Shown piece after piece: positions 5,246 to 61,851 of a DNA stretch of 64,000 bases. Position 1 is the first letter of the stretch. Each line of letters starts with the position of its first letter. The translations under genes and the position numbers were made by a program. This DNA comes from an uncultured bacterium (GTDB lineage: Bacteria; Patescibacteriota; Saccharimonadia; UBA4664): NCBI GenBank assembly GCA_963740635.1, contig CAVUEQ010000001.1, positions 740,840-804,839 on the forward strand, given 5' to 3'. The notes under the pieces are model-generated. The model had not been told where the DNA came from. It saw nothing but the letters and a program-made list of their open reading frames with translations, and did no database searches.

Positions 5246-6654
5246 ATGTTTTTGGACATACCCTACGACAAACTCGAGCAAATGAACCTGGCGGCGCGCA
5301 AGCTGACCGACCCGGACGAGGCCAAAGCCAAACACACGGCGTACCTGGAGGGCGAGCCGAAACTGAAGGCGGTGACGGTTTGCTTTTCGGACATCGAAGG
5401 CCGGCTGCACATGCTCGACTACGACAAGAAATTCCTGCTGGCGTCGCTCGACAACCTGACGTTTGACGGCAGTTCGATCCGGGGCTTCAGCGAGCTGCAC
5501 GAGAGCGACCTGCGGCTGCTGCTCGATTGGACCAGTTTCACGCACCTGCCGGCGGACGTGTTTGGGCCGGGAAAGGTGATCGTGTGGGCGAACGTGGCCG
5601 GGCGTGACCTCAAGCCGTACGAGGCCGATTTCCGCGGGCGGCTGCAGGCCTATGCCGCTGAGCTTGCGGCGAAAGACGGCCTGGAGGCTTTCATGGCGCC
5701 GGAGCTGGAGGGGTTTTTGCTGGACGGCGTCGACGCCGAGCAGCATTTTTCCAGCGCCGAGGGCTTTAAGCTGATCTCGAGCGGCGGCTATTTCCACTCC
5801 CTGCCGCTCGACCGGCTGCGGCAGTTCATCGACGCCACGGCCGAGGCGCAGCGGGCGCTCGGGTTCCGCAACGAGAAGGACCACCCCGAGGTGGCGCCGT
5901 CACAGTTCGAAATTAACTTCAGTTACACCGACGTGGTGCGGGCCTGCGACCAGGTGCAGCTGTACAAGCTGATTTGCCGGCAGATCGCCAACCGCCTGGG
6001 CATGACGGCGACCTTTTTGCCCAAGCCCATCCAGGGCATCAACGGCAGCGGCATGCACACCAACTTTTCGCTGGCGCGGGACGGCAAAAACGCCTTCCAC
6101 GACGCCAAGGGCACGGACGGCCTGTCGCCGCTCGGCGTGGGGTTTCATCGAGAAACTGCTCCACCGCGCGCCGGAAATCTGCCTGGTACTGAACTCGAGC
6201 GTGAACTCCTACCGCCGGCTGGACCCGAACTTCGAGGCCCCCAACCAGATTAAGGTGTGCGCCCACGACCGCGGCTCGATGATCCGCATCCCGTTTGGCA
6301 ACGAGCGCACGGCGCGCATCGAGATCCGCTCCGTGGCGCCGGACACCAACCCGTACCTGCTGCTGTTCGCTTTGCTGAAGGTCGGTCTCGAAGACAAGAA
6401 ACCAAGCCGCGGAAAGCGCCGACAAGCGATCGCGGCTGCGGTTTTTGCCGGGTACCATCAAGGACGCAATGCGCCTGTTTAAGGCCAGCGACCTGACGGC
6501 TGGGATTATGGGCGAGGACACGAAGGAGAAGTTCCTGAGCTACAAGCAGGCCTCGGCCGACCGCAACCCGCGCGAGCTGGGCACGACCATTAAAGATTCC
6601 GAGATTATCTACCACCACGAGGTGTGGAACCAGGTACTGTGGAATAAGTTCTAG
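5246..6654 (+). pseudogene. glnA: Glutamine synthetase (GlnA) reading frame interrupted by two +1/-1 frameshifts (near about 6140 and about 6430). This is either a pseudogene or an assembly indel.
   Basis: Frame A (5246..) carries GSGMHTNFSL. Frame B (about 6125..6482) carries FIEKLLHRAPEICLVLNSSVNSYRRL...RGSMIRIP...NPYLL. Frame C (about 6421..6654) carries LPGTIKDAMRLFKASDLT. Together these make a complete GS of about 470 aa. The first shift lies in a G-run (ggcgtgggg). Confidence 0.8.
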
Positions 6655-6692
6655 CTTACGGGCGCCGGTTTTTCGCGAGGAGCGTGATGGCA

Positions 6693-6828
6693 ACTATACT
6701 CCAAAAGGGTATATCTACCATTATCACACAAATGTTGTAGTCTTTTTGGCTTGGGTGAGCCATTATTTCTACCTTACTCGAACACAAATGCCCATTACCG
6801 TCAAAGGTATACTCTTTGGGAGTATAGT
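6693..6828. mobile_element. MITE-like 136-bp AT-rich element with about 22-24 bp terminal inverted repeats (copy 1), upstream of kbl.
   Basis: Left end ACTATACTCCAAAAGGGTATATCTA. Right end GGTATACTCTTTGGGAGTATAGT, which is the reverse complement of the left. The internal motif TGTAGTCTTTTTGGCTTGGGTGAGCCATTA is shared with copy 2. Confidence 0.6.
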
Positions 6829-6905
6829 CGGGCATGCGAGGACTCCGGAAAAAATGCGTGGGTACACCTGGTGCATTTTGGACCGGAAGCGTACACTAGG
6901 TCGTT

Positions 6906-8093
6906 ATGAGCACAAAAGATAATTTCTACAAGCAACTAGCCGAAGCCGAGGCCGGCTTCAAGCCGCCGCGGGTGATTACCAGCGGGCAGGGCGCCTACTT
7001 AAAGATAGACGGCCAGCCGCGGCTGAACTTTTGCTCGAGCCATTACCTGGGGTTCGCGGTGGACGGGCGGCTGAAGCAGGCGGCCAAAGCGGCCGTCGAC
7101 AAGTACGGCATTGGCACCGGCTACCGCACGCTGGCCGGGACGCACGAGTTGCACCTGGAGCTGGAGCGGGCCATCGCGGAGTTTAAGGGCGCCGAGGCGG
7201 CAGTGGTATTTTCGAGCGCCTACGCGGCCAACGCGGCGGCCATCCAGACGATTATCGGCAAGGAAGACATTGTGATTTCGGATGAGCTGAACCACGCCTC
7301 CATCATCGATGCGGTGCGGCTGAGCGGGGTGAAAAATAAGTTCATATACGGCCACGGGGATATGGCGGCGCTGGAGGCGAAGCTTCAAGAGGTGGCAGAG
7401 CTGCGCAAAACGCCCAAGGCCAACGGCGAGCCGCCGCTGGTGCTGATAGTGACCGACGGCGTTTTTTCGATGGACGGCGACCTGGCGCCCCTGCCCCGGA
7501 TCGTGGAGCTCGCCAAGCGCTACGACGCGCTGACCATGGTGGACGACGCCCACGGCGAGGGCGTGCTGGGCCGTGGCGGCCGCGGGATCGTGGACCACTT
7601 TGGCCTGACCGGAGAGGTGGACATCGAGGTGGGGAGCTTGAGCAAGGCGTTTTCGGTGATGGGCGGATTTATTGCGGGCCGGCGCGAGTTGGTTAATTTC
7701 TACAACGCGAGGGCCCGGCAGCGGCTGTTTTCGGTGGCGCTGACCATCCCCGACACGGCGGCGGCCCTGGAGGCGGTGCGGATTTTGCAGGAGTCGCAGG
7801 ATTTGGTGCAGAAATTGTGGGACAACGTGGATTATTTGCGCGAAGGGTTTAAGGAGCTGGGATTTGATATCGGCCACTCCGAGACGCCGATCATCCCGGT
7901 GATGCTGGGCGACGAAAAAACGGCGGTGGAAATGAGCGCCAAGATGTTTGCAGACGGGGTGTTTGCGACGCCGATTGTGTTTCCGATGGTAGCCAAGGGC
8001 AAGGCGCGGATACGGGTGATCGTGTCGGCGAGCTTCAGCCGCGAGGACTGCGATAAGGGGTTGGCGGCGTTCAAGAAGGCGCGGGGGGATTAA
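6906..8093 (+). CDS. kbl: 2-amino-3-ketobutyrate CoA ligase (glycine C-acetyltransferase), class II PLP aminotransferase. Assigned as Kbl rather than BioF because tdh is adjacent.
   Basis: 395 aa. PLP-lysine context GSLSKAF. Convergent with a threonine dehydrogenase-like Zn-ADH gene. Confidence 0.8.
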   Translation: MSTKDNFYKQLAEAEAGFKPPRVITSGQGAYLKIDGQPRLNFCSSHYLGFAVDGRLKQAAKAAVDKYGIGTGYRTLAGTHELHLELERAIAEFKGAEAAVVFSSAYAANAAAIQTIIGKEDIVISDELNHASIIDAVRLSGVKNKFIYGHGDMAALEAKLQEVAELRKTPKANGEPPLVLIVTDGVFSMDGDLAPLPRIVELAKRYDALTMVDDAHGEGVLGRGGRGIVDHFGLTGEVDIEVGSLSKAFSVMGGFIAGRRELVNFYNARARQRLFSVALTIPDTAAALEAVRILQESQDLVQKLWDNVDYLREGFKELGFDIGHSETPIIPVMLGDEKTAVEMSAKMFADGVFATPIVFPMVAKGKARIRVIVSASFSREDCDKGLAAFKKARGD

Positions 8094-8170
8094 CCTTTCC
8101 TTTTAATGGGGGTGGGGGCGTTTGGCGTGTTCGATTGCACGAGGTTTTTCTGCGAGTTGGCACGGTGCGC

Positions 8171-8306
8171 ACTATACTCCAAAAGAGTATATCTATCTTT
8201 CCGGCGAATATATTGTGTAGTTTTTGCTTAAGTGAAGCCATAAACGCGATGTTGCAATATTACATGTTTAGAGCAATGTCAAAACTATACCCTTTTGGAG
8301 TATAGT
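8171..8306. mobile_element. MITE-like 136-bp element copy 2, between kbl and tdh. Same TIRs and same length as copy 1.
   Basis: Left ACTATACTCCAAAAGAGTATATCTA. Right AAAACTATACCCTTTTGGAGTATAGTTG, the reverse complement of the left. Internal TGTAGTTTTTGCTTAAGTGAAGCCATAA. Confidence 0.6.
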
Positions 8307-8346
8307 TGTGTGTATAAGTTTCCGCGGGGAGTGGCGGCGTCCGGTT

Positions 8347-9546
8347 TTAACCGTTAACCTTGAAGATGACTTTGGGGTGGGCGTTGAGGGCTTGCTCGAA
8401 ATTGAGCTGGTCGTACTGCGCGAGCGGTAGGATGGTCCCCTCCCCTTTTTTGAGGATGACGTCCCAGATTTTGCCCTGGATGCCGTTGGATTTGTCCGAC
8501 AGAATGCGCTGGGAAATCTGCCAGGTGCCGAAAATTTGGCGGCCGATAATGCCGTGGACGGTGAGGCCTTTGACGATAAAGCGCGAGAATTTGGGAACGG
8601 TGAAGTCGCCGTCCTTGAGGCCGAAGAGGATGACCTGGCCGCCGCGGCGGGTGGCTTCGAGGGCGTTGTTGAGGCTCGAGGGCGGGCCGGCCATTTCCAT
8701 GGCGATGTCGACGCCCTTGCCGTAGGTGAGCTCGTTGATGCGGCCGACCACTTCGGGGTCGTGGTCGTAGTCGTGGGCCTTTTCCTTGCGCTCGATCTGG
8801 ATGGTCTCGTGGGCGCCGCACGCCTTAGCCATGGCCAGGTTGTCAGGGTTAACGTCGACGGCGATGACCTTGGCCGCGCCGAAATTTTTGAGCAGCAAGA
8901 TGGCGAACAGGCCAATTGGGCCGCAGCCCATCACGGCCACGCGCTGGCCGCGGACCTCGACCTTGGTGGAGGCGTGGACGGCGTTGCCGAACGGGTCCAT
9001 GATGGCGGCGATTTCGGGGCGGATGCGGGACTCGTCGATCGGCCAGAGGTTTTTGGCCGGGATTTTGACGTATTCGGCAAAGATGCCGTTGATGGAAATG
9101 CCGAGAATGCTCTCGTTCATGCAGACGTTGCCCTCACCGATGCGGCACTGGTAGCATTTGCCGCAGGTGACATGCGAGTCGCCGGACACCAAGCTGCCGA
9201 CCTCGATTTTGGCGTTGTTGTTCGGGTCTTCGTCGTAATAGAGGGTGCGAACCATGGAGCCGGCCGCCACGACCTCGCCGACGAATTCGTGGCCGAGCAC
9301 GCGCAAAGTCTGGCCCTGGGCGGCCAAGGAGTCGTGGATGAGGTCGTGGAAGGTGTTGCGGTAGTAGATGCCGCGGTCGGTGCCGCAAACGCCGGCGTAG
9401 CGGATTTTGAGAATGACGGCAGTGGCGTCGGCGGGGTCGGCCGCCTCGTTGAGGGCGGGCCGCTCGATGTCTCGGAGCACAAAGCCCCGGGATTTCTCCC
9501 AGGAATCGGTGTGAGTATCAAATGTGAGAGCTTTTACTGTGGCCAT
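8347..9546 (-). CDS. tdh: Zn-dependent alcohol dehydrogenase family, L-threonine 3-dehydrogenase-like.
   Basis: GHEFVGEVV zinc-ADH motif, cysteine-rich structural zinc loop (CGKCYQCRIGEGNVC), Rossmann GCGPIG. Neighbour of kbl. Confidence 0.75.
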   Translation of the reverse strand: MATVKALTFDTHTDSWEKSRGFVLRDIERPALNEAADPADATAVILKIRYAGVCGTDRGIYYRNTFHDLIHDSLAAQGQTLRVLGHEFVGEVVAAGSMVRTLYYDEDPNNNAKIEVGSLVSGDSHVTCGKCYQCRIGEGNVCMNESILGISINGIFAEYVKIPAKNLWPIDESRIRPEIAAIMDPFGNAVHASTKVEVRGQRVAVMGCGPIGLFAILLLKNFGAAKVIAVDVNPDNLAMAKACGAHETIQIERKEKAHDYDHDPEVVGRINELTYGKGVDIAMEMAGPPSSLNNALEATRRGGQVILFGLKDGDFTVPKFSRFIVKGLTVHGIIGRQIFGTWQISQRILSDKSNGIQGKIWDVILKKGEGTILPLAQYDQLNFEQALNAHPKVIFKVNG

Positions 9547-13128: not shown

Positions 13129-13368
13129 CTAGTGAATCGCGTGTAGCAAACGCAATATGCCGATGGTCTCATTGCCGGCAAGGTGCCTCGCGATTGTGAT
13201 GTCAGTCAAACCCTGGGGATCCTGTCCGATGAGATAGACTGGCGCGTAGCCCTTTTTGGCGGCCGTGGGGCTGATCCAGAATCGCGCGAATACATTGTCT
13301 CGTCCTCGAAAAAGCGAGCGAAACAGGCTTACTTTGGCTTTGTTGGTCGCCTCGTGCTCCCCCACCAA
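13129..13368 (-). CDS. Short hypothetical ORF, possibly a gene remnant, within a lower-GC islet.
   Basis: 79-aa ORF abutting the Fic gene. No recognisable domain. Confidence 0.25.
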   Translation of the reverse strand: MVGEHEATNKAKVSLFRSLFRGRDNVFARFWISPTAAKKGYAPVYLIGQDPQGLTDITIARHLAGNETIGILRLLHAIH

Positions 13369-13372
13369 ACTC

Positions 13373-14470
13373 TTATCCTAGCCGCCGCTTGATCTCTGCC
13401 AGGGTTTGACGCTGGTCAGTCTGCAGGCGACGGATTTCTTTGGCCCGACCGATCATGGTGAGTTCATAGAGTTGGTATCCGCCGGGGGTATGCGAGGCCA
13501 CCTCAAGCAGGCCTTCACGGGTCCAGTGGCGAAGAGTCGGGACGGTCTCCTCGGTATCCTTAGCCAATTCGCCAATCTTGAGGAGTTTGGCGGCACCGGC
13601 ACCGGGGCTTGCAAGAGATGGCCCGCCGACTGATTCAAGGTAAATGTCGAGAGAGCGATCGATGGAAGCATAGATGCAATCATAATACCCGTCCATCGGG
13701 CCGCCGGTCTGGGCGGTTTCAAGTGAAGTAATATAGGTGCTCCGATCCTCTGGACGGAGGATGGCAGCGGGGTAGCCTGTCTGCATGAGGAGTAGATTCA
13801 TGAGGAGTCTGGCGGTTCGCCCGTTACCGTCGACAAACGGGTGGATACTGACTAGCCTGAAGTGAGCATCAGCCGCGATCTTTGCGGGATGATCAGAGTT
13901 CTCTGATTTCAGCCATGTGGCAAATGCAGCCATGAGGTCTGGTACCTTTAGGTAGTTTGGCATTACGGCCCGGCTACCGGCGATTCGCACCGGGACGCTT
14001 CTGTAGCGCCCGGCGTTTACGTCAGCAGTGCCGCCTAGGATTCTCTCATGTAACGAAAGTATGAGGTCCTCTGTGATATCTGTGCGATCCCCACCGACAA
14101 ATTGCTCGATATAGTCAAATGCCCGAGCATGGCCAGCAGCTTCCATAACTTCTTTGAGCGTTTTGCCCTCAATGCCAAGCCCCTTGTCTACCACCAGTGC
14201 CGTTTCCTGGCGCGTTAGGGTGTTGCCCTCGATGGCGTTCGAAGTGTAGGTCAGCTCAACACGAAACCACTCCCGAAGATTATTGATCAGCTCGGGGGCG
14301 AGGGGCTGAAACTGATCCAGCGATTGTTTCTTGCGACTGATGTTGGCTAGAATTGTATACATAGTATGCAGTGTAACGTCACGCTTTACGGTTGTCAAGA
14401 TGCCCACATACTCCGTGAAGTTTGCGTCAATGTCTGCCTTGCCCGACGAACGAACCGTCGGAGGTCCCAC
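13373..14470 (-). CDS. Fic/Doc family protein (class II Fic with intramolecular inhibitory motif) fused to a C-terminal MerR-like HTH.
   Basis: Canonical Fic motif HPFVDGNGRTARLL. Inhibitory [S/T]xxxE[G/N] motif TSNAIEGN near the N-terminus. C-terminal LKIGELAKDTEETVPTLRHWTREGLL...LAEIKRRL resembles a MerR HTH. Locus is about 55% GC. Confidence 0.8.
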   Translation of the reverse strand: MGPPTVRSSGKADIDANFTEYVGILTTVKRDVTLHTMYTILANISRKKQSLDQFQPLAPELINNLREWFRVELTYTSNAIEGNTLTRQETALVVDKGLGIEGKTLKEVMEAAGHARAFDYIEQFVGGDRTDITEDLILSLHERILGGTADVNAGRYRSVPVRIAGSRAVMPNYLKVPDLMAAFATWLKSENSDHPAKIAADAHFRLVSIHPFVDGNGRTARLLMNLLLMQTGYPAAILRPEDRSTYITSLETAQTGGPMDGYYDCIYASIDRSLDIYLESVGGPSLASPGAGAAKLLKIGELAKDTEETVPTLRHWTREGLLEVASHTPGGYQLYELTMIGRAKEIRRLQTDQRQTLAEIKRRLG

Positions 14471-14622: not shown

Positions 14623-14699
14623 TGGTGGAGCTGGAGGGATTCGAACCCTCGACCTCTGCAATGCGAATGCAGCGCTCTAGCCAGCTGAGCTACAGCCCC
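14623..14699 (-). tRNA. tRNA-Ala (anticodon CGC), CCA encoded.
   Basis: Reverse complement GGGGCTGTAGCTCAGCTGGCTAGAGCGCTGCATTCGCATTGCAGAGGTCGAGGGTTCGAATCCCTCCAGCTCCACCA. Anticodon loop TT-CGC-AT. G3:U70. Confidence 0.85.
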
Positions 14700-18363: not shown

Positions 18364-18500
18364 TGTGCGGGCAACCCCGCGGCTGGTTGAGCGCTGAAGC
18401 GCTGACTGGCCGCGGGACCCACGGAATTATTTGACCTGCCTTCTAATGGGTAGGTCATTTTGTTCTCCCAAGTGGGTACTAATTTCGGTACGTATGGCTT

Positions 18501-18570
18501 TTTTTATATCATATATGGGTTCAGCGCGATACCATATATGGTATAGAAAGTCAGATACATCGTAAGGGAT
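18501..18570. repeat. Conserved about 70-bp AT-rich palindromic intergenic element, copy 1 of 2 (family with the CCATATATGG palindrome).
   Basis: TTTTTATATCATATATGGGTTCAGCGCGATACCATATATGGTATAGAAAGTCAGATACATCGTAAGGGA. Copy 2 at about 40496-40567 shares about 80% identity. Contains the perfect palindrome TACCATATATGGTA. Confidence 0.6.
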
Positions 18571-20108: not shown

Positions 20109-20513
20109 ATGCCGCCCATTAATACTCCCTCTCCATTTGATGAGCTCCCGAAGCCGCTGCGACCGGCGATTTTCTACATTCTTCTAGCCTTAGTGCGAGG
20201 TGCTTCGCACGGATATGTCCTGAAAAATGTGGCCCGAAATGATTCGTTTGGGAGCGTCAAGATCCCGGTAGGTAAACTTTATGATTTACTGATGACAATG
20301 TTTGAAGATGATCTCATTGAGCTTGCTGGAGACCGACCTGCGGGTAAATCGGGCATTCTCCGCACGCATTACCGGATATCGCAATACGGGACGATCCGCT
20401 TAAAAGAAGAGTTAGTCCGAATGGCTCATGCAGCCAAGATCGGCGAGGCAGCCGGTTTGCTAGATGACCAAATGCCGCTCGACCTCCAGCGTCTGAAGAT
20501 GGGACGCCTATAG
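20109..20513 (+). CDS. PadR-family transcriptional regulator.
   Basis: ILLALVRGASHGYVLKNV...GKLYDLL is a PadR winged-helix signature. Confidence 0.7.
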   Translation: MPPINTPSPFDELPKPLRPAIFYILLALVRGASHGYVLKNVARNDSFGSVKIPVGKLYDLLMTMFEDDLIELAGDRPAGKSGILRTHYRISQYGTIRLKEELVRMAHAAKIGEAAGLLDDQMPLDLQRLKMGRL

Positions 20514-29845: not shown

Positions 29846-31738
29846 TTATTCGAGAACGGCTTTGATGCGGCGGATGCCGGCGGAGCTGGATTCCTCTTTG
29901 GTGATTTTGTAGCGTTTGCCGCCCTCGCCTAGCGCGGCGGTGTGGGTGACGTGAGGGCCGCCGCAGATTTCTTTACTGAACCACTCCCCGTCCGGGTCGC
30001 CGGCCGTATAGACTTTCACCGTGTCGCCGTATTTATCACCGAAGGCACCCAGCGCACCCTCTTCGAACGCCTGCGCAGTCGGGATTTCGCGGAAGCCCAT
30101 GGGCCAGTCGCGCTCGATGTTGGCGTTTACGATATCCTCGACCTGTTTGATCTGCTCCGGGGTCATTTTCTCGGGATGGCTGAAGTCGAAACGCAGGCGT
30201 TCGGGGGTGATGTTACTACCGCGCTGAATGACGTGGTCGCCAAGTACCTCGCGCAGGGCTTTGTAGCCGAGGTGGGTGGCGGTGTGGTATTTGATGGAAA
30301 CGTCGGAATGGTCGGCCAGGCCGCCCTTGAATTGGCCGGCGGTGGCGGTGCGGGAGCGGTCACGCTGTTCGCGCAGGAGAGCTTCGAACTCGCTGTGCCA
30401 GTGCTGGTTGACGGGGATGTGCTTCTCGTGGGCTTCCTCGAGCGACAGTTCAGGCGGGAAACCGTAAGTGTCGAACAGCACGAAGATTTTGGCGCCGGTG
30501 AGTTCGTCGCCGGCCAGTTTCTTGAATTCTCGCACGCCGCGCTCGAGGGTTTTGCGGAACTGTTTTTCCTCGGCCACGAGGGTGTGAATGATGGCTTCTT
30601 CGCGGGCGGCCACCTCCGGGAAATCGTCGCGGTAGAGCTCGGCGATCACGGGCACTACCAGCTCCAGGAAGTCCTCCTTGAGGTCGAGGGCCAGAGCCTG
30701 GCGGATGGCGCGGCGGATGAAGCGGCGCATGACATAGCCCTGGTCTGTGTTACTGGGCGCCACGCCGTCGACAGCCAGGAAATACCGCCGCGCGCAGGTG
30801 GTCGGCGATGATGCGCATGGCCTCCGGGTTTTGGTCGTAGCGGATGCCGCTCATTTCCTCGAGCTTGCGAATGATCGGCCACAGCAGGCTGATGCGGAAC
30901 ATGTCGCCGCTCCCCTCCTTGGCCGCCGCGATGCGCTCGAGGCCGCCGCCGAAGTCCACGTTTCGCTTGGGCAGCTCGTCGAAACCGCCGTCCTCGCGCT
31001 TGATGATATTGCATAAACACCGAGTTACCGATCTCCATGAAGCGGCCGCAGTCGCAGTTGGGGTGGCAGTGCTGGCCCCACTTCGGGATCGTGCTCGATA
31101 TGGGTGAATTCGTAGAACATTTCCGAATCCGGCCCGCCAGGTTCACCCGCGGGCATGTTTTCGGGCACGCCGGCGCGGCTCCACCAGTTCTTCCTGGCGT
31201 CGTAATAAAAGATGCGCTCGCCGGGATTGATGCCGCGGTCGTAGCCGCCTTGTTCGGAGCCGATATGGGCCGCTTCGGCCTGAACGCCCTTGTCCGCGAA
31301 CAGCTTTTTCCAGATCGCGACTGATTCGTCGTCGCGGGGGATGTCATTTTGCTGATCGCCCGCTAAAGACGGTGACGTATAGATTCTGGTCGGGTCGAGA
31401 CCCACCACGCCGGTGATAAATTCCCAGAACCACGGGAGCTGCTCGGCTTTGAAGTAGTCACCGAGGCTCCAGTTGCCGAGCATCTCGAAGAAAGTAGTGT
31501 GGCGGTTGTCGCCGACTTCGTCGATGTCCTCGGCGCGGAAGCAAGTCTGAGAGTTGACCAGGCGGGTTCCATTCGGGTGCACCTCGCCGAGCAGATACGG
31601 AACGAGTGGCTGCATGCCGCTGCCGGTAAAGAGCGTCGTGGGGTCTTCGCGCGGCACGAGGTTGGCGCGCGGGATTACGGCGTGGCCGCGGCCGGCGAAG
31701 AATTTAAGGTAGGCGGAGCGAATTTCGTTCGTGGTCAT
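29846..31738 (-). pseudogene. alaS: Alanyl-tRNA synthetase (short form, about 630 aa) split over four reading frames by three frameshifts between about 31070 and about 30760. The gene is essential, so assembly indels are a likely cause.
   Basis: The 31738 frame has the N-terminal catalytic domain (…GPDSEMFYEFTHIEHDPE). The 31347 frame has CGRFMEIGNSVFMQYHQ. The 30959 frame has DFGGGLERIAAAKEG…MRIIADHLRAAVF. The 30763 frame has APSNTDQGYVMRRFIRRAIRQ plus the editing-domain motifs HTATHL and CGGPHV. Confidence 0.85.
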
Positions 31739-36382: not shown

Positions 36383-36478
36383 GAGGTCCGACCTTCACCG
36401 TGTTACTGGAATCCCGGTTGTGTTTGAGAACTACTTGAGCGTAAGCGGGATTCCGGTGTTTCGCTCAAGGTCGGACCT
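36383..36478. repeat. REP-like palindromic doublet (two inverted copies) at the 3' side of the RAYT gene.
   Basis: GAGGTCCGACCTTCACCGTGTTACTGGAATCCCGG (36383-36417) and the inverted GGGATTCCGGTGTTTCGCTCAAGGTCGGACCT (36447-36478). Confidence 0.65.
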
Positions 36479-37013
36479 TGGCCCTTGACAGGTACTCCAG
36501 GTAGTCGCATGGCGTATCAAATAGTTGTAATACCGGCCGGGGGTCGACAAAGCTAGAAGCGCTGTCTGGCTGGAGGTAAACCTGCAGGCTGGAATGTTGG
36601 TGTTGGCGCCAGCCGAGTCCTGCGCGCTCCGGGTTTCGGTGGATATAGCGCGACTCCTCCATAAGGTGGGCAGCCCCAGCCACCCGGCTTGCCTTGTATT
36701 TTCCCTGAAACAATGGCCCAATACGCAAGTGGCGCTGGTTGAAGTAGATAACATACCCGGTAATTAACCTCTGGAACCATCGGCCCATTGCCCCGGTTTC
36801 AGTTTGGCTTAGTAATACGTGGAAGTGGTTCGGCATGAGGCAAAAAGCGAGTAAAGTAACGCTCGGCTCCCGCTCGAGGGCTTGGTGCATCTGCAACTTG
36901 AAGCGCTGGTGGTCATGGTGATCGAGGAAGATACGCCTGCGCTCAACCCCCCGGTTGTATGCATGATAAATGCCTTGGGGTAGGTCTTCTTTGATCGTGT
37001 GGCGAGACGGCAT
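36465..37013 (-). mobile_element. REP-associated tyrosine transposase (RAYT) / IS200-like Y1 HUH transposase TnpA. Start taken at internal MPSRHTIKED...
   Basis: HUH motif MPNHFHVLL. Catalytic Tyr context SRYIHRNP. N-terminal MPSRHTIKEDLPQGIYHAYNRG resembles the IS200 TnpA start. Flanked by REP-like repeats. Confidence 0.8.
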
Positions 37014-37045: not shown

Positions 37046-37080
37046 GCAAGGTCCGACCTTCACCGTGTTACTGGAATCCC
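37046..37080. repeat. REP-like sequence, third copy, 5' of the RAYT gene.
   Basis: AAGGTCCGACCTTCACCGTGTTACTGGAATCCCGG is identical over 31 nt to the 36383-36417 copy. Confidence 0.7.
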
Positions 37081-40421: not shown

Positions 40422-40495
40422 CGTAAGGGTATCGTTAACTGCGTTATCGTAGCATAAATCTTATCCGGGCATCGACCCTTCGTCATGTATGTGTG

Positions 40496-40567
40496 TTTTT
40501 ATATCATATATGGGTTCCCGCAGATACCATATAAGGTATAAAAAACGTGATACACCTCGAAGGAGGC
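40496..40567. repeat. Conserved about 70-bp AT-rich palindromic element, copy 2 (upstream of metG).
   Basis: TTTTTATATCATATATGGGTTCCCGCAGATACCATATAAGGTATAAAAAACGTGATACACCTCGAAGGAGG. Confidence 0.6.
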
Positions 40568-42138: not shown

Positions 42139-42185
42139 ATAAGAGGAGTGTAACATTAAATTTTTTTCGGGCTTATGCCCTGCAT

Positions 42186-42260
42186 GGTGTATGTGCCAAA
42201 TTGGGAGATAGGTTTCAAAATTGAGGCTAAATTTTCGAGCGATGTCCCAATTTGGCACAT
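42186..42260. repeat. Palindromic about 75-bp element with about 19-bp TIRs (ATGTGCCAAATTGGGAGAT / ATGTCCCAATTTGGCACAT), copy B, upstream of rsmA.
   Basis: ggtgtatgtgccaaattgggagataggtttcaaaattgaggctaaattttcgagcgatgtcccaatttggcacat. Related to 26115-26207 in inverted orientation. Confidence 0.6.
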
Positions 42261-43295
42261 TCAGGCTGCTGGGAGTGGGCCAGCGGGAGGAGTGGAAGCC
42301 GGAGTTGGAACCGCAGAAGTTGGTGGGGCCGGTGGAGCCGATGGGGCCGGGGCAAAAGGCGGGGCGGCGGGGGCGGGTGGGGCCGGGGGAGCCGCGGGCG
42401 CAGGCGGGGCCGGCGGCGGCGCAGGTGGGGCCGGCGGCGCGGCACCCATAGCCAGCAGCTGCGCCAAGGCGGTGCGGGTGCGGGCTACCGTGCCGGCAAT
42501 GTCGCCGCCGGCCTTGTTGATTTGCCAGGCCAACAGCGCCAGCATTTTGTAAGCCGCATAGACCTTAATGGTTTCAGGTTTACTGACCTGGAGCATGTGG
42601 TTCATGATTTGGGCGCTGGCTTCAGGTTGGTCCGCCAGCGAAAACCACAGCCCCACCAGGTCGATCAGCCGGTCGCCATAGCCGACCTGGTCCCAGTCGA
42701 GGACCGCGGAGATATTTTGCCCCTGGGTGAGCACCTGGTCGATGGTGAAGTCGCCGTGGACGAGGTCGCCCTTTTCCAACATCAGGTTGTCGAGGCCCAT
42801 CACCATGCCCTCGATTTGGGCGGCCAGCGAACTGGTTTCGGGCCCAAAGAGCATCAGCATGCGGACCAGGCTCCCCTCCCCTTTGAAGACGGCGCTTTGG
42901 ATGTACCAGCCCCAGTCTTGGCCCTGGACTTCGGAAATGGCCTTGCCTTTTTGGAGCTCGATGAGGTTAATGAGAGCCGTGACTTGCTCCGGAGTGGGCT
43001 TTTCGGTGGCCAGCCCGGGGAGTTCGTCCTCGAGCCAAAAGGTGCCGCGGTCGGTGGCGTCGATGTAGTAATAGGCGGGTACGGGGTAACCAAGCGGCCG
43101 GAGGTGCCCGGTGGCGGCTTTGGCGCGTTCTATCTGGGCTTTCCACATGGGATTATTGCTAGTTTTGAGTACGGCGCGAGCGCCGTCGGTGTTGGTAACG
43201 CGAAAGGCATGTTCGCCACCCGAAAACTGCGCCGTGAGCGTGTAGTTGGTGCCCTTGGCGGCGTTGATGTATTCGAGGGCTGAATTAGGGTCCAT
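42261..43295 (-). CDS. Aminoglycoside phosphotransferase (APH)/choline kinase-like protein kinase-fold enzyme with a C-terminal Pro/Ala-rich tail.
   Basis: Catalytic HGD (DLVHGDF) and DxD (LDWDQVGYGD) motifs. Tail APPAPPAPPPAPPAPAAPPAPPAP. Confidence 0.65.
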   Translation of the reverse strand: MDPNSALEYINAAKGTNYTLTAQFSGGEHAFRVTNTDGARAVLKTSNNPMWKAQIERAKAATGHLRPLGYPVPAYYYIDATDRGTFWLEDELPGLATEKPTPEQVTALINLIELQKGKAISEVQGQDWGWYIQSAVFKGEGSLVRMLMLFGPETSSLAAQIEGMVMGLDNLMLEKGDLVHGDFTIDQVLTQGQNISAVLDWDQVGYGDRLIDLVGLWFSLADQPEASAQIMNHMLQVSKPETIKVYAAYKMLALLAWQINKAGGDIAGTVARTRTALAQLLAMGAAPPAPPAPPPAPPAPAAPPAPPAPAAPPFAPAPSAPPAPPTSAVPTPASTPPAGPLPAA

Positions 43296-51079: not shown

Positions 51080-51354
51080 GGCGGTTACCTCCTCTCAACA
51101 GGTCTCGTATCAAACAACTTCGATTAGAAATTTCGACCAGGCTACGATACAACTAAGTGCGAGGAATAGCAATCTACTCGCGGTCCGAATGTGCTGTTCT
51201 TTGTATGGGTGATTTGTGTGTTCCTGAATTGTTCGGTAAATGTTTGCTTATATACGAAGATGTACTAAAATGTAAGTACAAATGATTCGCTTTCCGAACT
51301 GTCACCGTATGGTGTGCGTGTCTGGGACATCCAGACTAGGAGGCGGATCGCTTG

Positions 51355-51972
51355 TTATTTAAAACGCCAAATATTTTCGATTCGTTTTTTAACTATTCGT
51401 TGATACTCATCATCGCCGGAATTGACAGTATGATAGATCGATCCGGAGAGCATGTCCGCTAGCTGGATCAGTACGTTCTCTTTTGAATCTACGAACCTTA
51501 GAGATTTGATTATTCTGTCATCTCCCTGATTGAGCTGAGCCCTCAAGTACGATCCAGCTGCTCGCTTATACGTTCTGTCGCCTCGTCCGTCGAGCTTAAT
51601 CTTGGCGTCGATAATTTTGCCTTTTGCATCTTTAAGCAACAACTTTATGGCATAGTTATAAAACGAAGCGCGGTTATGCTTAAGTTCCTCACTGTTGATG
51701 ATTGACTTATCAATTACCAGAGCTCGGACTCGGAAATTATTCCCGCTTACCCTTTTGAGAAATGCTTGTTTTGTTTGGGCGTTTGCTCTGTTGAAATGAA
51801 ATTCGTGGGAGTCCGGGCGCTTCAGCTCCCGTCTGAGTAATTTAATATCTACCGCAGTTTTCTCGGCAGCTAGATCATCCTCAAAGATAACCGCGACTAG
51901 TACGAAGTATTTTGTGGAGCCCCTGTTGATTTTAAAGCCAGCGTCGCCAGATTCATCGATAAAGACCAACAT
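51355..51972 (-). CDS. DUF3800 family protein, AT-rich, start 5 nt after the pcrA stop.
   Basis: MLVFIDESGD ... IQLADMLSGSIY are DUF3800 hallmarks. Followed by an about 270-bp AT-rich non-coding stretch. Confidence 0.7.
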   Translation of the reverse strand: MLVFIDESGDAGFKINRGSTKYFVLVAVIFEDDLAAEKTAVDIKLLRRELKRPDSHEFHFNRANAQTKQAFLKRVSGNNFRVRALVIDKSIINSEELKHNRASFYNYAIKLLLKDAKGKIIDAKIKLDGRGDRTYKRAAGSYLRAQLNQGDDRIIKSLRFVDSKENVLIQLADMLSGSIYHTVNSGDDEYQRIVKKRIENIWRFK

Positions 51973-56274: not shown

Positions 56275-57996
56275 TCACTTTACGTCTACGCAGTATGGAG
56301 CGGCGGCGCCGTCGAGCAGGGTGTAGAGCGCTAGGTAGCGGGTGCCGGTGGCGCCAGGCGTGTGGGCGGGGCCGGTGCAGGAGCCGCCGGGCTGGTACTG
56401 GATTTGGCCGGCCGCGGTGGGGGCTGTCTTGGCTACCACGTAGGGCTGGCCGGTGCCGGGATCAGTTGCGCTAACTGAGACGGCCGGCGGGTTGACGGGG
56501 TAGAAACCGTTTTTGCTAATGGCCTTGTAGGCCGCGGCGAAGGCGGCCAGGTCTGATTGGCGCTGGGCATTGGCCGCGGCCACATCCGGGGTGGGGACGG
56601 GAGTGGGGGTGGCGTCTGAGCCGAGCACGCTCGAGCCGGTGTCGCTGGTTTTGGGCGTGGGAGTAGGCGCCGGCGAGGGGCTCGACGGCTTGGCGATAAT
56701 CATGAACACCGCGCCGCCGCCGATGAGCAATAGCACGGCAAACGTGGCAATTAACGCGAGCTGGCGCCCGCGCGAGAGGGGCTGAGGGTGCGTGACCGGC
56801 TGCACCGGGGGCTTGGCGGGCTGCGGCGCCGACGAGGCCAGCGGGGCCGGGGGCGGGGTTCCGGGGGCCGGTGCGGACGGTGCCGCTGGAGTAGCCGGCG
56901 GTGAGACCTCGGGGGTGGCGGGCTCGGATGGCGGGGCGGTCAACGTGGTGGCTTCGGGAGTGTCGGTCTGGGCCTCGGGGGCTGCGGGAGGCTCTGGGGC
57001 CGCCGGCGTGTCCGGAGCGGGCGGCGCGGCATCCTCCGACTCAGCTGGTTTTTCGGGTTCGTCCTCCCGTTCAGCGGCTGGGTCTTCGGACCCGGCAGTT
57101 CCGTCAGGTTTATCTTCATCTTGGCCGGCCGGAACGGGCTTATCCTCTTCTTCGGCGGCAGGACTGTCTGCGTCTGGCTTCTCAGCGCCCCCGGCCGGAT
57201 TCGTGTCTTCTTCGGCCGGCTCGGTGTCTTCTTCGGCCGGCTCCGCATCCTTATCGGACTCCTCCGGCTCCTTGGCATCCGTCTCGGGCGTGGCATCGGG
57301 ACCGGCGGTGGTTTCGGCGCTGGCAGCGTCAGCAATTGCGGCCACGGCGGCCACGGCCGGGCTGGAAGACAAGGCCGTTTGCGGCTCGAGAGTTTCGTTG
57401 GCCTCGGGCTCGGGCTCGGCCTTGGCTGCGCCTTGCAGCTCGGCGATCGACTCTTGCAAGACCTTTTCGGGCGGCTCGTCTACATCTGTGACCACCGCCG
57501 CCGGTTCGGCTGCGGCTTCGGCCACGGGTGTTTTGTCGGCCTCAGGCGGTTCGTCAGCTTCGGGCTTGTCAGTTTCGGGCTTGCCGGTCTTCAGCAGTTT
57601 GTCATCACCATGCGTTTTGATCACGGCCGCGGGCTTGTCATCATCTTCTTTGGATTCGTTTTCATCGACCTTTTCGGCCTCGGGCTCATCGGATTTATCG
57701 GCCTCATCGGGCTTATCGACCTTCTCGACCTTCTCGGCCTCATCGGGTTTCTCGGGCTCATCAGGTTTCAGTGGCTCTTCTGGTTCGTCGGATTTTGCCG
57801 GTTCGTCAGCTGTTGCGGGTTCCGGGTCCGGCTTCGGCGCATCGTGCCCGTGCAGGATCGGGGGCATGGCGTCTTCAATTTTCTGCTTGTCAGCGTCGCT
57901 CAGGATTTCGACATGACCGCATTCCATGCATAACCAGCCGGCTTTCGACTGGACCATTTCGTTGCCGCAATTTGAGCACTTCATGGAATCAAGCAT
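56275..57996 (-). CDS. Zinc-ribbon / about 350-aa acidic Pro/Glu/Asp-rich disordered region / TM / pseudopilin-like C-terminal domain (paralog 2).
   Basis: MKCSNCGNEMVQSKAGWLCMECGH. TM LALIATFAVLLLIGGGAVFMII. C-terminal AQRQSDLAAFAAAYKAISKNGFYP...ATDPGTGQPYVV. Confidence 0.7.
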   Translation of the reverse strand: MLDSMKCSNCGNEMVQSKAGWLCMECGHVEILSDADKQKIEDAMPPILHGHDAPKPDPEPATADEPAKSDEPEEPLKPDEPEKPDEAEKVEKVDKPDEADKSDEPEAEKVDENESKEDDDKPAAVIKTHGDDKLLKTGKPETDKPEADEPPEADKTPVAEAAAEPAAVVTDVDEPPEKVLQESIAELQGAAKAEPEPEANETLEPQTALSSSPAVAAVAAIADAASAETTAGPDATPETDAKEPEESDKDAEPAEEDTEPAEEDTNPAGGAEKPDADSPAAEEEDKPVPAGQDEDKPDGTAGSEDPAAEREDEPEKPAESEDAAPPAPDTPAAPEPPAAPEAQTDTPEATTLTAPPSEPATPEVSPPATPAAPSAPAPGTPPPAPLASSAPQPAKPPVQPVTHPQPLSRGRQLALIATFAVLLLIGGGAVFMIIAKPSSPSPAPTPTPKTSDTGSSVLGSDATPTPVPTPDVAAANAQRQSDLAAFAAAYKAISKNGFYPVNPPAVSVSATDPGTGQPYVVAKTAPTAAGQIQYQPGGSCTGPAHTPGATGTRYLALYTLLDGAAAPYCVDVK

Positions 57997-61806: not shown

Positions 61807-61851
61807 AACTAGGTATTCTAATCACCTACTAAGTGATTGGAATACCTAGTT
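61807..61851. promoter_or_regulatory. 19-bp near-perfect inverted repeat with 7-nt spacer about 20 nt upstream of the second PadR gene. Candidate autoregulatory operator.
   Basis: AACTAGGTATTCTAATCAC-ctactaa-GTGATTGGAATACCTAGTT. Confidence 0.5.

Follow-up and report, generated by a model that had tools for sequence, protein, structure and literature searches.

The stretch of DNA analyzed here (the window) comprises 64 kb of contig CAVUEQ010000001.1 from an uncultured bacterium, and our subject is a pair of 136-bp units that lie on either side of a gene resembling kbl. The local gene order, in positions of the window, is glnA (+ strand, 5246–6654), copy 1 of the unit (+, 6693–6828), the kbl-like gene (+, 6906–8093), copy 2 (+, 8171–8306) and a tdh-like gene (−, 8347–9546). 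Copy 1 occupies the space between the glnA stop (6654) and a promoter-like site of kbl, and copy 2 lies where kbl, ending at 8093, converges with the tdh-like gene, whose 3′ end is at 8347; the flanking open reading frames (ORFs) are as claimed in an earlier note on this DNA, which had the units bracketing kbl with the second of them between kbl and tdh. The kbl-like gene has its best matches among glycine C-acetyltransferase/BioF-Kbl family models and the tdh-like gene, a zinc alcohol dehydrogenase gene, best matches L-threonine 3-dehydrogenase, with both scores under the NCBIfam curated cut-offs. The nearest Kbl homologues come from Candidatus Saccharimonadales and Patescibacteria metagenome-assembled genomes, and the host genome is probably that of a member of the Saccharimonadales, in the candidate phyla radiation (CPR).

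Each unit is bounded by ACTATACTCCMAAAGRGTATA, the second occurrence of which is inverted. The arms of the kbl units are written ACTATACTCC..., and their outer ends, ACTA...TAGT, are invariant. A scan with the 21-nt arm ACTATACTCCAAAAGRGTATA finds four occurrences with 0–1 mismatch, at 6693–6713 (+), 6808–6828 (−), 8171–8191 (+) and 8286–8306 (−). Even when 3 mismatches are allowed, the window has no fifth site for this arm (shuffled sequence gives an expectation of 0.00), nor any third copy of the unit. The arms pair over 24 nt with 88% complementarity in copy 1 and over 21 nt with 95% in copy 2, and this pairing and the arm scan together confirm the two 136-bp units with 21–24 bp terminal inverted repeats (TIRs) that the earlier note had placed here. 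The hairpin that it had seen in each TIR is likewise found, as a 7-5-7 palindrome, TATACYC-N5-GRGTATA, that is present in every arm. The centers of the arm palindromes are asymmetric, and the distance from center to center is 113 bp, identical in both units.

As single-stranded DNA the arm hairpins are AT-rich and weak (−2.1 to −6.0 kcal/mol). The left arm of copy 1, ACTATACTCCAAAAGGGTATATCT (6693–6716, +), has its inner palindrome at 6695–6713 (hairpin −2.1 kcal/mol), and the inverted right arm (6805–6828, −) has its own at 6808–6826 (−3.9 kcal/mol). In copy 2 the inner palindromes lie at 8173–8191 within the left arm, ACTATACTCCAAAAGAGTATA (8171–8191, +), and at 8286–8304 within the inverted right arm (8286–8306, −). 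The units are AT-rich as previously described, with a G+C content of 0.38 in copy 1 and 0.34 in copy 2, although the figure against which this is to be set is the 0.62 of the window and not 65%. Low G+C alone is not anomalous here, because 56 AT-rich intergenic islands (G+C below 0.42 over 60 nt) are present in the window.

The exact unit lengths should be treated cautiously because the assembly may hold indel errors. Both glnA and alaS can be read only across several frames: glnA (5246–6654) runs through three, with shifts near 6145 and 6406, and alaS (29846–31738) is split into two ORFs. Given that these are essential genes, assembly indel errors are more likely than pseudogenes.

Comparison of the two units shows that they are alike mainly at their ends. 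Over their whole length 87 of 136 positions are identical without gaps (94/140 with gaps), and in register the arms are identical at 39 of 42 positions vs 48 of 94 for the interiors (Fisher p = 8e-7). The corresponding Jukes-Cantor distances are 0.075 and 0.79, so that the arms are about 10 times better conserved than the interior, where divergence has reached 49%; the TIR conservation between copies that was implied earlier is thus borne out. Even so, the 48 matches in 94 interior positions exceed what shuffled sequences give (mean 24.9, maximum 44 in 20,000 shuffles; p < 5e-5), and the interiors of the two units are homologous over their length and heavily diverged. Local alignment of the interiors is significant in the direct sense (p = 0.006, by shuffles) and not in the inverted sense (p = 0.34), and the two units are therefore in the same orientation.

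Conserved between the copies are the arms, a TCTA beside the left arm, a GTCAAA beside the right arm and a core, TGTAG..TTTTTGGCTT..GTGA.GCCAT. The core is TGTAGTCTTTTTGGCTTGGGTGAGCCAT in copy 1 (6736–6763, +), where it includes a small hairpin, GGCTT..GAGCC, and a terminator-like match at 6747–6762; in copy 2 it is TGTAGTTTTTGCTTAAGTGAAGCCAT (8216–8241, +), as defined by the local alignment. The common internal core of the earlier note survives in this form, as about 28 nt that can be aligned between the copies only with small indels (p = 0.006), but its ungapped consensus matches neither copy at up to 3 mismatches.

Outside the units, the two copies remain homologous for about 26 bp leftward of the left arm, but not on the right. 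This homology includes a block, GGTTTTTC(T)GCGAG (p = 0.0025, uncorrected for six comparisons), that is GGTTTTTCGCGAG at 6667–6679 (+), 13 bp before copy 1, and GGTTTTTCTGCGAG at 8143–8156 (+), 14 bp before copy 2, where it overlaps the T-run of a terminator-like hairpin (8126–8141) downstream of kbl. The element may extend 5′ into this block, or the block may be a common target or a terminator tail. We also considered longer terminal repeats extending into the GC-rich flanks and rejected them, as only the left-left pair is similar (p = 0.0025) and the five other comparisons are non-significant.

The one-sided flank homology, the common orientation and the 1.3 kb separation of the copies are what would be expected if an immobile intergenic segment had been duplicated once across kbl, with its arms then kept alike by gene conversion. 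We consider this most improbable: it leaves the origin of the first copy unexplained, a copy that the relatives also lack, and gene conversion limited to four 21-nt arms beside interiors that have diverged by 49% is a contrived requirement.

The spacers in the window measure 251 bp (glnA–kbl) and 253 bp (kbl–tdh). In relatives with convergent kbl and tdh genes (81–87% Kbl identity) they measure 3–40 bp and carry no arm: loci L010/L011 (84% Kbl identity) have a glnA–kbl spacer of 40 bp and a kbl–tdh spacer of 23 bp, and the kbl–tdh spacer is 14 bp in L009 (87%) and 3 bp in L017/L018 (82%). In L007/L008 (85%) other small genes occupy these spacers. None of 13 loci from relatives contains the arm at up to 6 mismatches. 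As judged from these alignments, both units are lineage-specific gains, placed in intergenic spacers without breaking anything, and we take them to be insertions because the relatives’ spacers are so short and lack the arm. The relatives are distant, and the occupied and empty sites show gain in the lineage and not recent mobility.

The glnA–kbl–tdh order itself exists in element-free relatives, and kbl is therefore ancestral at the locus, the units having arrived around it. This disposes of the suggestion in the earlier note of a composite unit mobilizing kbl, and a composite transposon carrying that gene is rejected on synteny. A separate observation in the relatives is a palindrome with 20-nt arms, AATTACCTCCCAAATGGGTA/TACCCAAAAGGGAGGTAATT, in the glnA–kbl spacer of L007 (9444–9484); it has only CCAAAAGGG in common with the arm, a weak resemblance that we judged to be due to chance.

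The promoter-like site of kbl (6868–6897, +) lies 39 bp downstream of the end of copy 1 and was thus left intact by the insertion. The site consists of CTGGTG, 18 nt, TACACT (−10-like, 6892–6897) and 8 nt before the ATG (6906), and the window and four relatives (L007, L009, L010 and L017) have in common a motif of this kind upstream of kbl, made up of a CTGGCA-like hexamer, 18 nt, TA(G/C)A(G/C)T, 8–10 nt and ATG. It is the putative kbl promoter, and the short distance to the ATG suggests a very short kbl leader or none.

Our preferred interpretation is that the units are diverged members of a family of non-autonomous TIR elements, similar to transposable elements of the miniature inverted-repeat type (MITEs) or to doublets of repetitive extragenic palindromes (REPs), that is specific to this Saccharimonadales lineage; we judge its chances to be about even. 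Most likely, then, the units are insertions of a miniature mobile element that had gone unrecorded before, although elements of this kind are ordinary. The 21-nt arms would then be binding sites for a protein supplied in trans, perhaps a transposase or an enzyme of the Y1/RAYT type, with its gene elsewhere in the genome. The two arms, which are separated by 113 bp or about 11 helical turns, would be joined by this protein across an AT-rich interior able to bend, with the conserved core as a possible bending or architectural-protein site, and the unit would be excised or copied and placed nearby. Local hopping of this sort would explain the presence of two copies 1.3 kb apart. The arms would be conserved since a copy can propagate only if they are intact, whereas the interiors are free to drift, and any influence on kbl or tdh expression would be secondary. 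If propagation of intact-arm copies is indeed the cause, the two copies derive from diverged sources and more copies must exist elsewhere; if, on the other hand, the arms are under selection at the locus as protein-binding sites, there is possibly no other copy.

Prokaryotic MITEs are less than 500 bp long, AT-rich and intergenic, with TIRs of 4–30 bp (PMC10969869). The units are 136 bp long, contain no transposase gene, have TIRs of 21–24 nt, are AT-rich and intergenic, and occupy sites that are empty in relatives. They are non-coding; no small ORF is common to both units, and the frames that cross the arms differ between the copies. In being short, AT-rich, non-coding and intergenic, in their 21–24 bp TIRs and in being present here and absent at the same sites in relatives, they resemble the Correia elements of Neisseria and the ERIC elements of enterobacteria. 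In addition, their conserved central segment could be a site for an architectural protein, like the IHF site in Correia elements (PMC10969869). They differ from known MITEs in that no target-site duplication was seen, the visible copies number only two, a parent insertion sequence is absent from the window, the arms themselves are palindromic (which is not usual for MITEs) and there is no sequence similarity to any retrievable element.

The second point of comparison is the REPIN, which consists of two inverted palindromic REPs separated by a less conserved spacer in extragenic DNA (PMC3116915). The units, too, are two inverted palindromes at a fixed distance with a less conserved spacer, they are extragenic, and the window contains a gene resembling those for REP-associated tyrosine transposases (RAYTs). 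There are differences, too. REPs carry a tetranucleotide tag, GTAG or CGTC, at one end (PMC3733652), and the arm ACTATACTCCAAAAGGGTATATCTA and its complement have neither. The spacer of the units forms no hairpin and only the arms pair, the arm hairpins are AT-rich and weak, and the REP of the RAYT-like gene differs from the kbl arms.

This RAYT-like gene is the sole mobile-element gene in the window and lies about 29 kb from the kbl units. The ORF (36468–37013, −; 182 aa, P0121) matches the Pfam family Y1_Tnp (E = 3.7e-8), and in NCBIfam it scores best, with 45 bits (cut-off 80), against the model for REP-associated tyrosine transposase. Identical 32-nt repeats, GGGATTCCAGTAACACGGTGAAGGTCGGACCT, lie on both sides of it (37049–37080 and 36384–36415), and an inverted copy of the repeat at 36443–36488 makes up a REP doublet at the 3′ end of the gene. 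In locus L022 a homologue with 80% identity is found at the same place, between the genes for TatD and a cysteine desulfurase, with the 3′ doublet conserved; the REP (GGTGAAGGTCGGACCT) is GTAG-tagged in L022 and has GTAA in the window. Homologues are common in Saccharibacteria, and several have been named RayT by JGI. All of this fits the pattern of a single-copy, vertically inherited RAYT (PMC5581495). We considered this gene as the partner of the units and rejected it, since the REP beside it bears no sequence relation to the kbl arms and since in L022 it is vertically inherited and in syntenic position. The gene nevertheless shows that the lineage has REP-type systems, and with other short dispersed repeats in the genome and a RAYT-like gene that has its own REPs, small repeat families and a Y1 enzyme are both present in it.

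The family has no recorded relative in any of the genome, metagenome, viral, plasmid and phage collections that we searched. The exact arm, with two free positions, was sought in 185,579 species-representative genomes, in JGI metagenomes and in IMG/VR, with six hits, four hits and one hit, respectively. All hits are single and lie in AT-rich, mostly coding DNA. No exact arm was found at a transposase gene in the public collections, the paired-arm pattern has no match in viral contigs, and a full-text search of the literature returned no paper combining Saccharibacteria with miniature inverted-repeat elements.

Several of these results count against a mobile element. None of the exact-arm hits has a partner arm and their number is near the chance level, and blastn against plasmids and phages gave no match. 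No target-site duplication adjoins the arms in either copy (direct repeats of at least 4 nt were sought), so the check that the earlier note had proposed came out negative; only a TA duplication could be hidden, in the ACTA...TAGT ends. Neither a third copy nor a transposase bearing kbl-arm ends was found in the window, where the RAYT-like gene has an unrelated REP. The non-autonomous element suggested earlier is thus supported by the MITE-like architecture and by the absence of both units from relatives, but not by an adjoining duplication, a further copy in the window or a partner transposase. Only two copies occur in 64 kb and they bracket one gene; with some 60 genes, we estimate that random landing in adjacent spacers would occur about 2 times in 60. 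Random insertion being unlikely, two copies in adjacent spacers are explicable by local hopping or by a function linked to kbl. The arm hairpins, at −2 to −6 kcal/mol, are unlike those of typical GC-rich REPs. Finally, conserved arms, a diverged interior and fixed spacing are equally expected from selection on protein-binding sites at the locus.

The last point leads to a module specific to kbl, regulatory in cis or architectural, in which the arms would be operators for a dimeric protein and the DNA would loop over the AT-rich interior and core; the upstream and downstream units may also pair with each other, isolating or silencing kbl, and the module may be a mobile element that was co-opted. 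We regard this as rather unlikely, though it is the main rival to a mobile element. A 7-5-7 palindrome is typical operator geometry, the arms evolve about 10 times more slowly than the interiors, the central core is conserved, and the distance between palindrome centers has stayed at 113 bp in each copy although the interiors have diverged by 49%. In the GalR-HU repressosome of the Escherichia coli gal operon the loop is also 113 bp, or 11 helical turns (PMC4693257). As an analogy of mechanism only, the units match it in having palindromes 113 bp and about 11 turns apart with a putative central site for an architectural protein; they differ in that there is no sequence relation, no repressor has been identified, one unit lies away from any promoter and the unit is duplicated on both sides of the gene.

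The positions of the units speak both ways. They bracket a single gene, with copy 1 39–175 bp upstream of the kbl promoter-like site, and the window has no other arm site, as a local regulator would predict; but copy 2 has a gene converging on it from either side and hence no promoter to control, and relatives have the same gene pair and the promoter-like motif without the module. Inside the units, a single promoter-like site was found (copy 2, − strand), and there is no promoter consistent between the two. Nor does a regulator gene adjoin the units, the nearest helix-turn-helix proteins being encoded by a Fic-MerR fusion (13373–14470) and a PadR gene (20109–20513). The identical 113-bp spacing and the conserved core suit either an operator loop or the synapsis of transposon ends, and the paired cis-regulatory or recombination alternative that the earlier note had offered fits the arm conservation (39/42 vs 48/94) and that spacing.

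Recombination could enter in two ways. The units, instead of being selfish passengers, could form a gene-bracketing device, in which a dimeric protein on the four arms pairs the units and loops out or recombines kbl, an arrangement that we think improbable. Or the arms could be the core sites of a site-specific recombinase, such that recombination between copy 1 and copy 2, each of which has arms in both orientations, could excise or invert kbl in the manner of a cassette or a switch, which we hold to be very doubtful. For the latter, two units in the same orientation bracket exactly one gene, the arms are palindromic with an asymmetric center, and the orientation of kbl vs tdh varies among relatives. 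The two genes are convergent in the window, L007, L009, L010 and L017, and they form a tdh-to-kbl operon in L019 and L020/L021; in these more distant relatives kbl is inverted in place relative to tdh (L019, 8794–11188; L020/L021, 8802–11188). However, where relatives have kbl oriented as in the window, the element is lacking and the spacers are tiny. Because the convergent arrangement also occurs without units, the inversion of kbl among relatives is independent of them. There is no recombinase or integrase gene in the 64 kb, and the 7-5-7 geometry is unlike that of attC (RYYYAAC/GTTRRRY ends), dif or hix-type sites. Integron attC sites resemble the units in being imperfect inverted repeats of similar length that bound one gene in the same orientation, but the window has no integrase and kbl is ancestral in relatives that have no units.

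A role for the units as transcribed RNA seems to us similarly remote. They might act as an RNase III stem, a stabilizer of mRNA, a terminator at the glnA and kbl 3′ ends or a gene for a small RNA. Each copy follows closely on a + strand gene, the two having the same orientation, and their arms would pair into a 19–21 bp stem; RNase III cuts comparable stems of Correia elements (PMC10969869). Terminator-like hairpins occur within copy 1 (6747–6762) and just before copy 2 (8126–8141), but copy 2 has no counterpart with a T-run for the hairpin inside copy 1, and the sole promoter-like site is in one copy only. The Rfam check proposed in the earlier note yielded no riboswitch or leader at the units, either at the gathering score over the whole window or at E values up to 10 over 6500–8500, and a known RNA family (riboswitch, leader or small RNA) is therefore rejected. 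Folding of the extended units as single strands is no better than that of shuffled sequences (z = −1.52 and −1.15). The consensus fold consists of the invariant arm-arm stem alone, with no conserved internal pairing and no informative covariation. On these two results we rejected a structured RNA or a long DNA hairpin.

The remainder of the window is mostly housekeeping (obg, metG, alaS, mnmA, a uvrD-type helicase gene, pgk, tpi and others). We also note a second family of AT-rich intergenic repeats, at 18484–18559 and 40479–40554, which are 78% identical over about 76 nt and have the core TTTTTATATCATATATGGGTTC..GATACCATATAWGGTATA..GATACA with a pair of CATATATG-type palindromes separated by about 26 bp; the relatives’ loci that were compared do not contain this family. 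Two other palindromes lie in AT-rich DNA, one at 42178–42273 with 45-nt arms (73% complementarity) and one at 61807–61851 with 22-nt arms (91%). A DUF3800-IX RNA motif (Rfam RF02968, 66.7 bits) is found at 51284–51353 (+), in an AT-rich stretch of about 0.85 kb (51085–51940) in which no ORF was called. A 762-aa ORF at 350–2638 (−) has no Pfam match and is made of repeats of about 390 bp, and a tandem 9-bp repeat (57670–57790) lies within another ORF that lacks a Pfam match (56275–57996). At 13132–14470 (−) the Fic-MerR fusion (365 aa) stands beside a fragment of 79 aa with a match to the TOTE conflict system primase domain; this region, beside a tRNA gene (14626–14699), may be the remnant of a defense or mobile island.

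The practical consequence of these findings is small for now. If a bracketing device with paired units does operate here, it would give on/off or excision control of threonine-to-glycine catabolism in a CPR bacterium with a reduced genome, and a single gene flanked on each side by an operator pair with a 113-bp loop would represent a previously undescribed control architecture. If only two copies exist, the strongly conserved arms and their fixed spacing on either side of kbl would point to a DNA-binding protein that controls or rearranges one metabolic gene. If instead the family is mobile, as in the interpretation that we prefer, it would put on record a miniature inverted-repeat element that is active in a Saccharimonadales genome, and would serve as a marker for typing strains and following genome change in this uncultured lineage.

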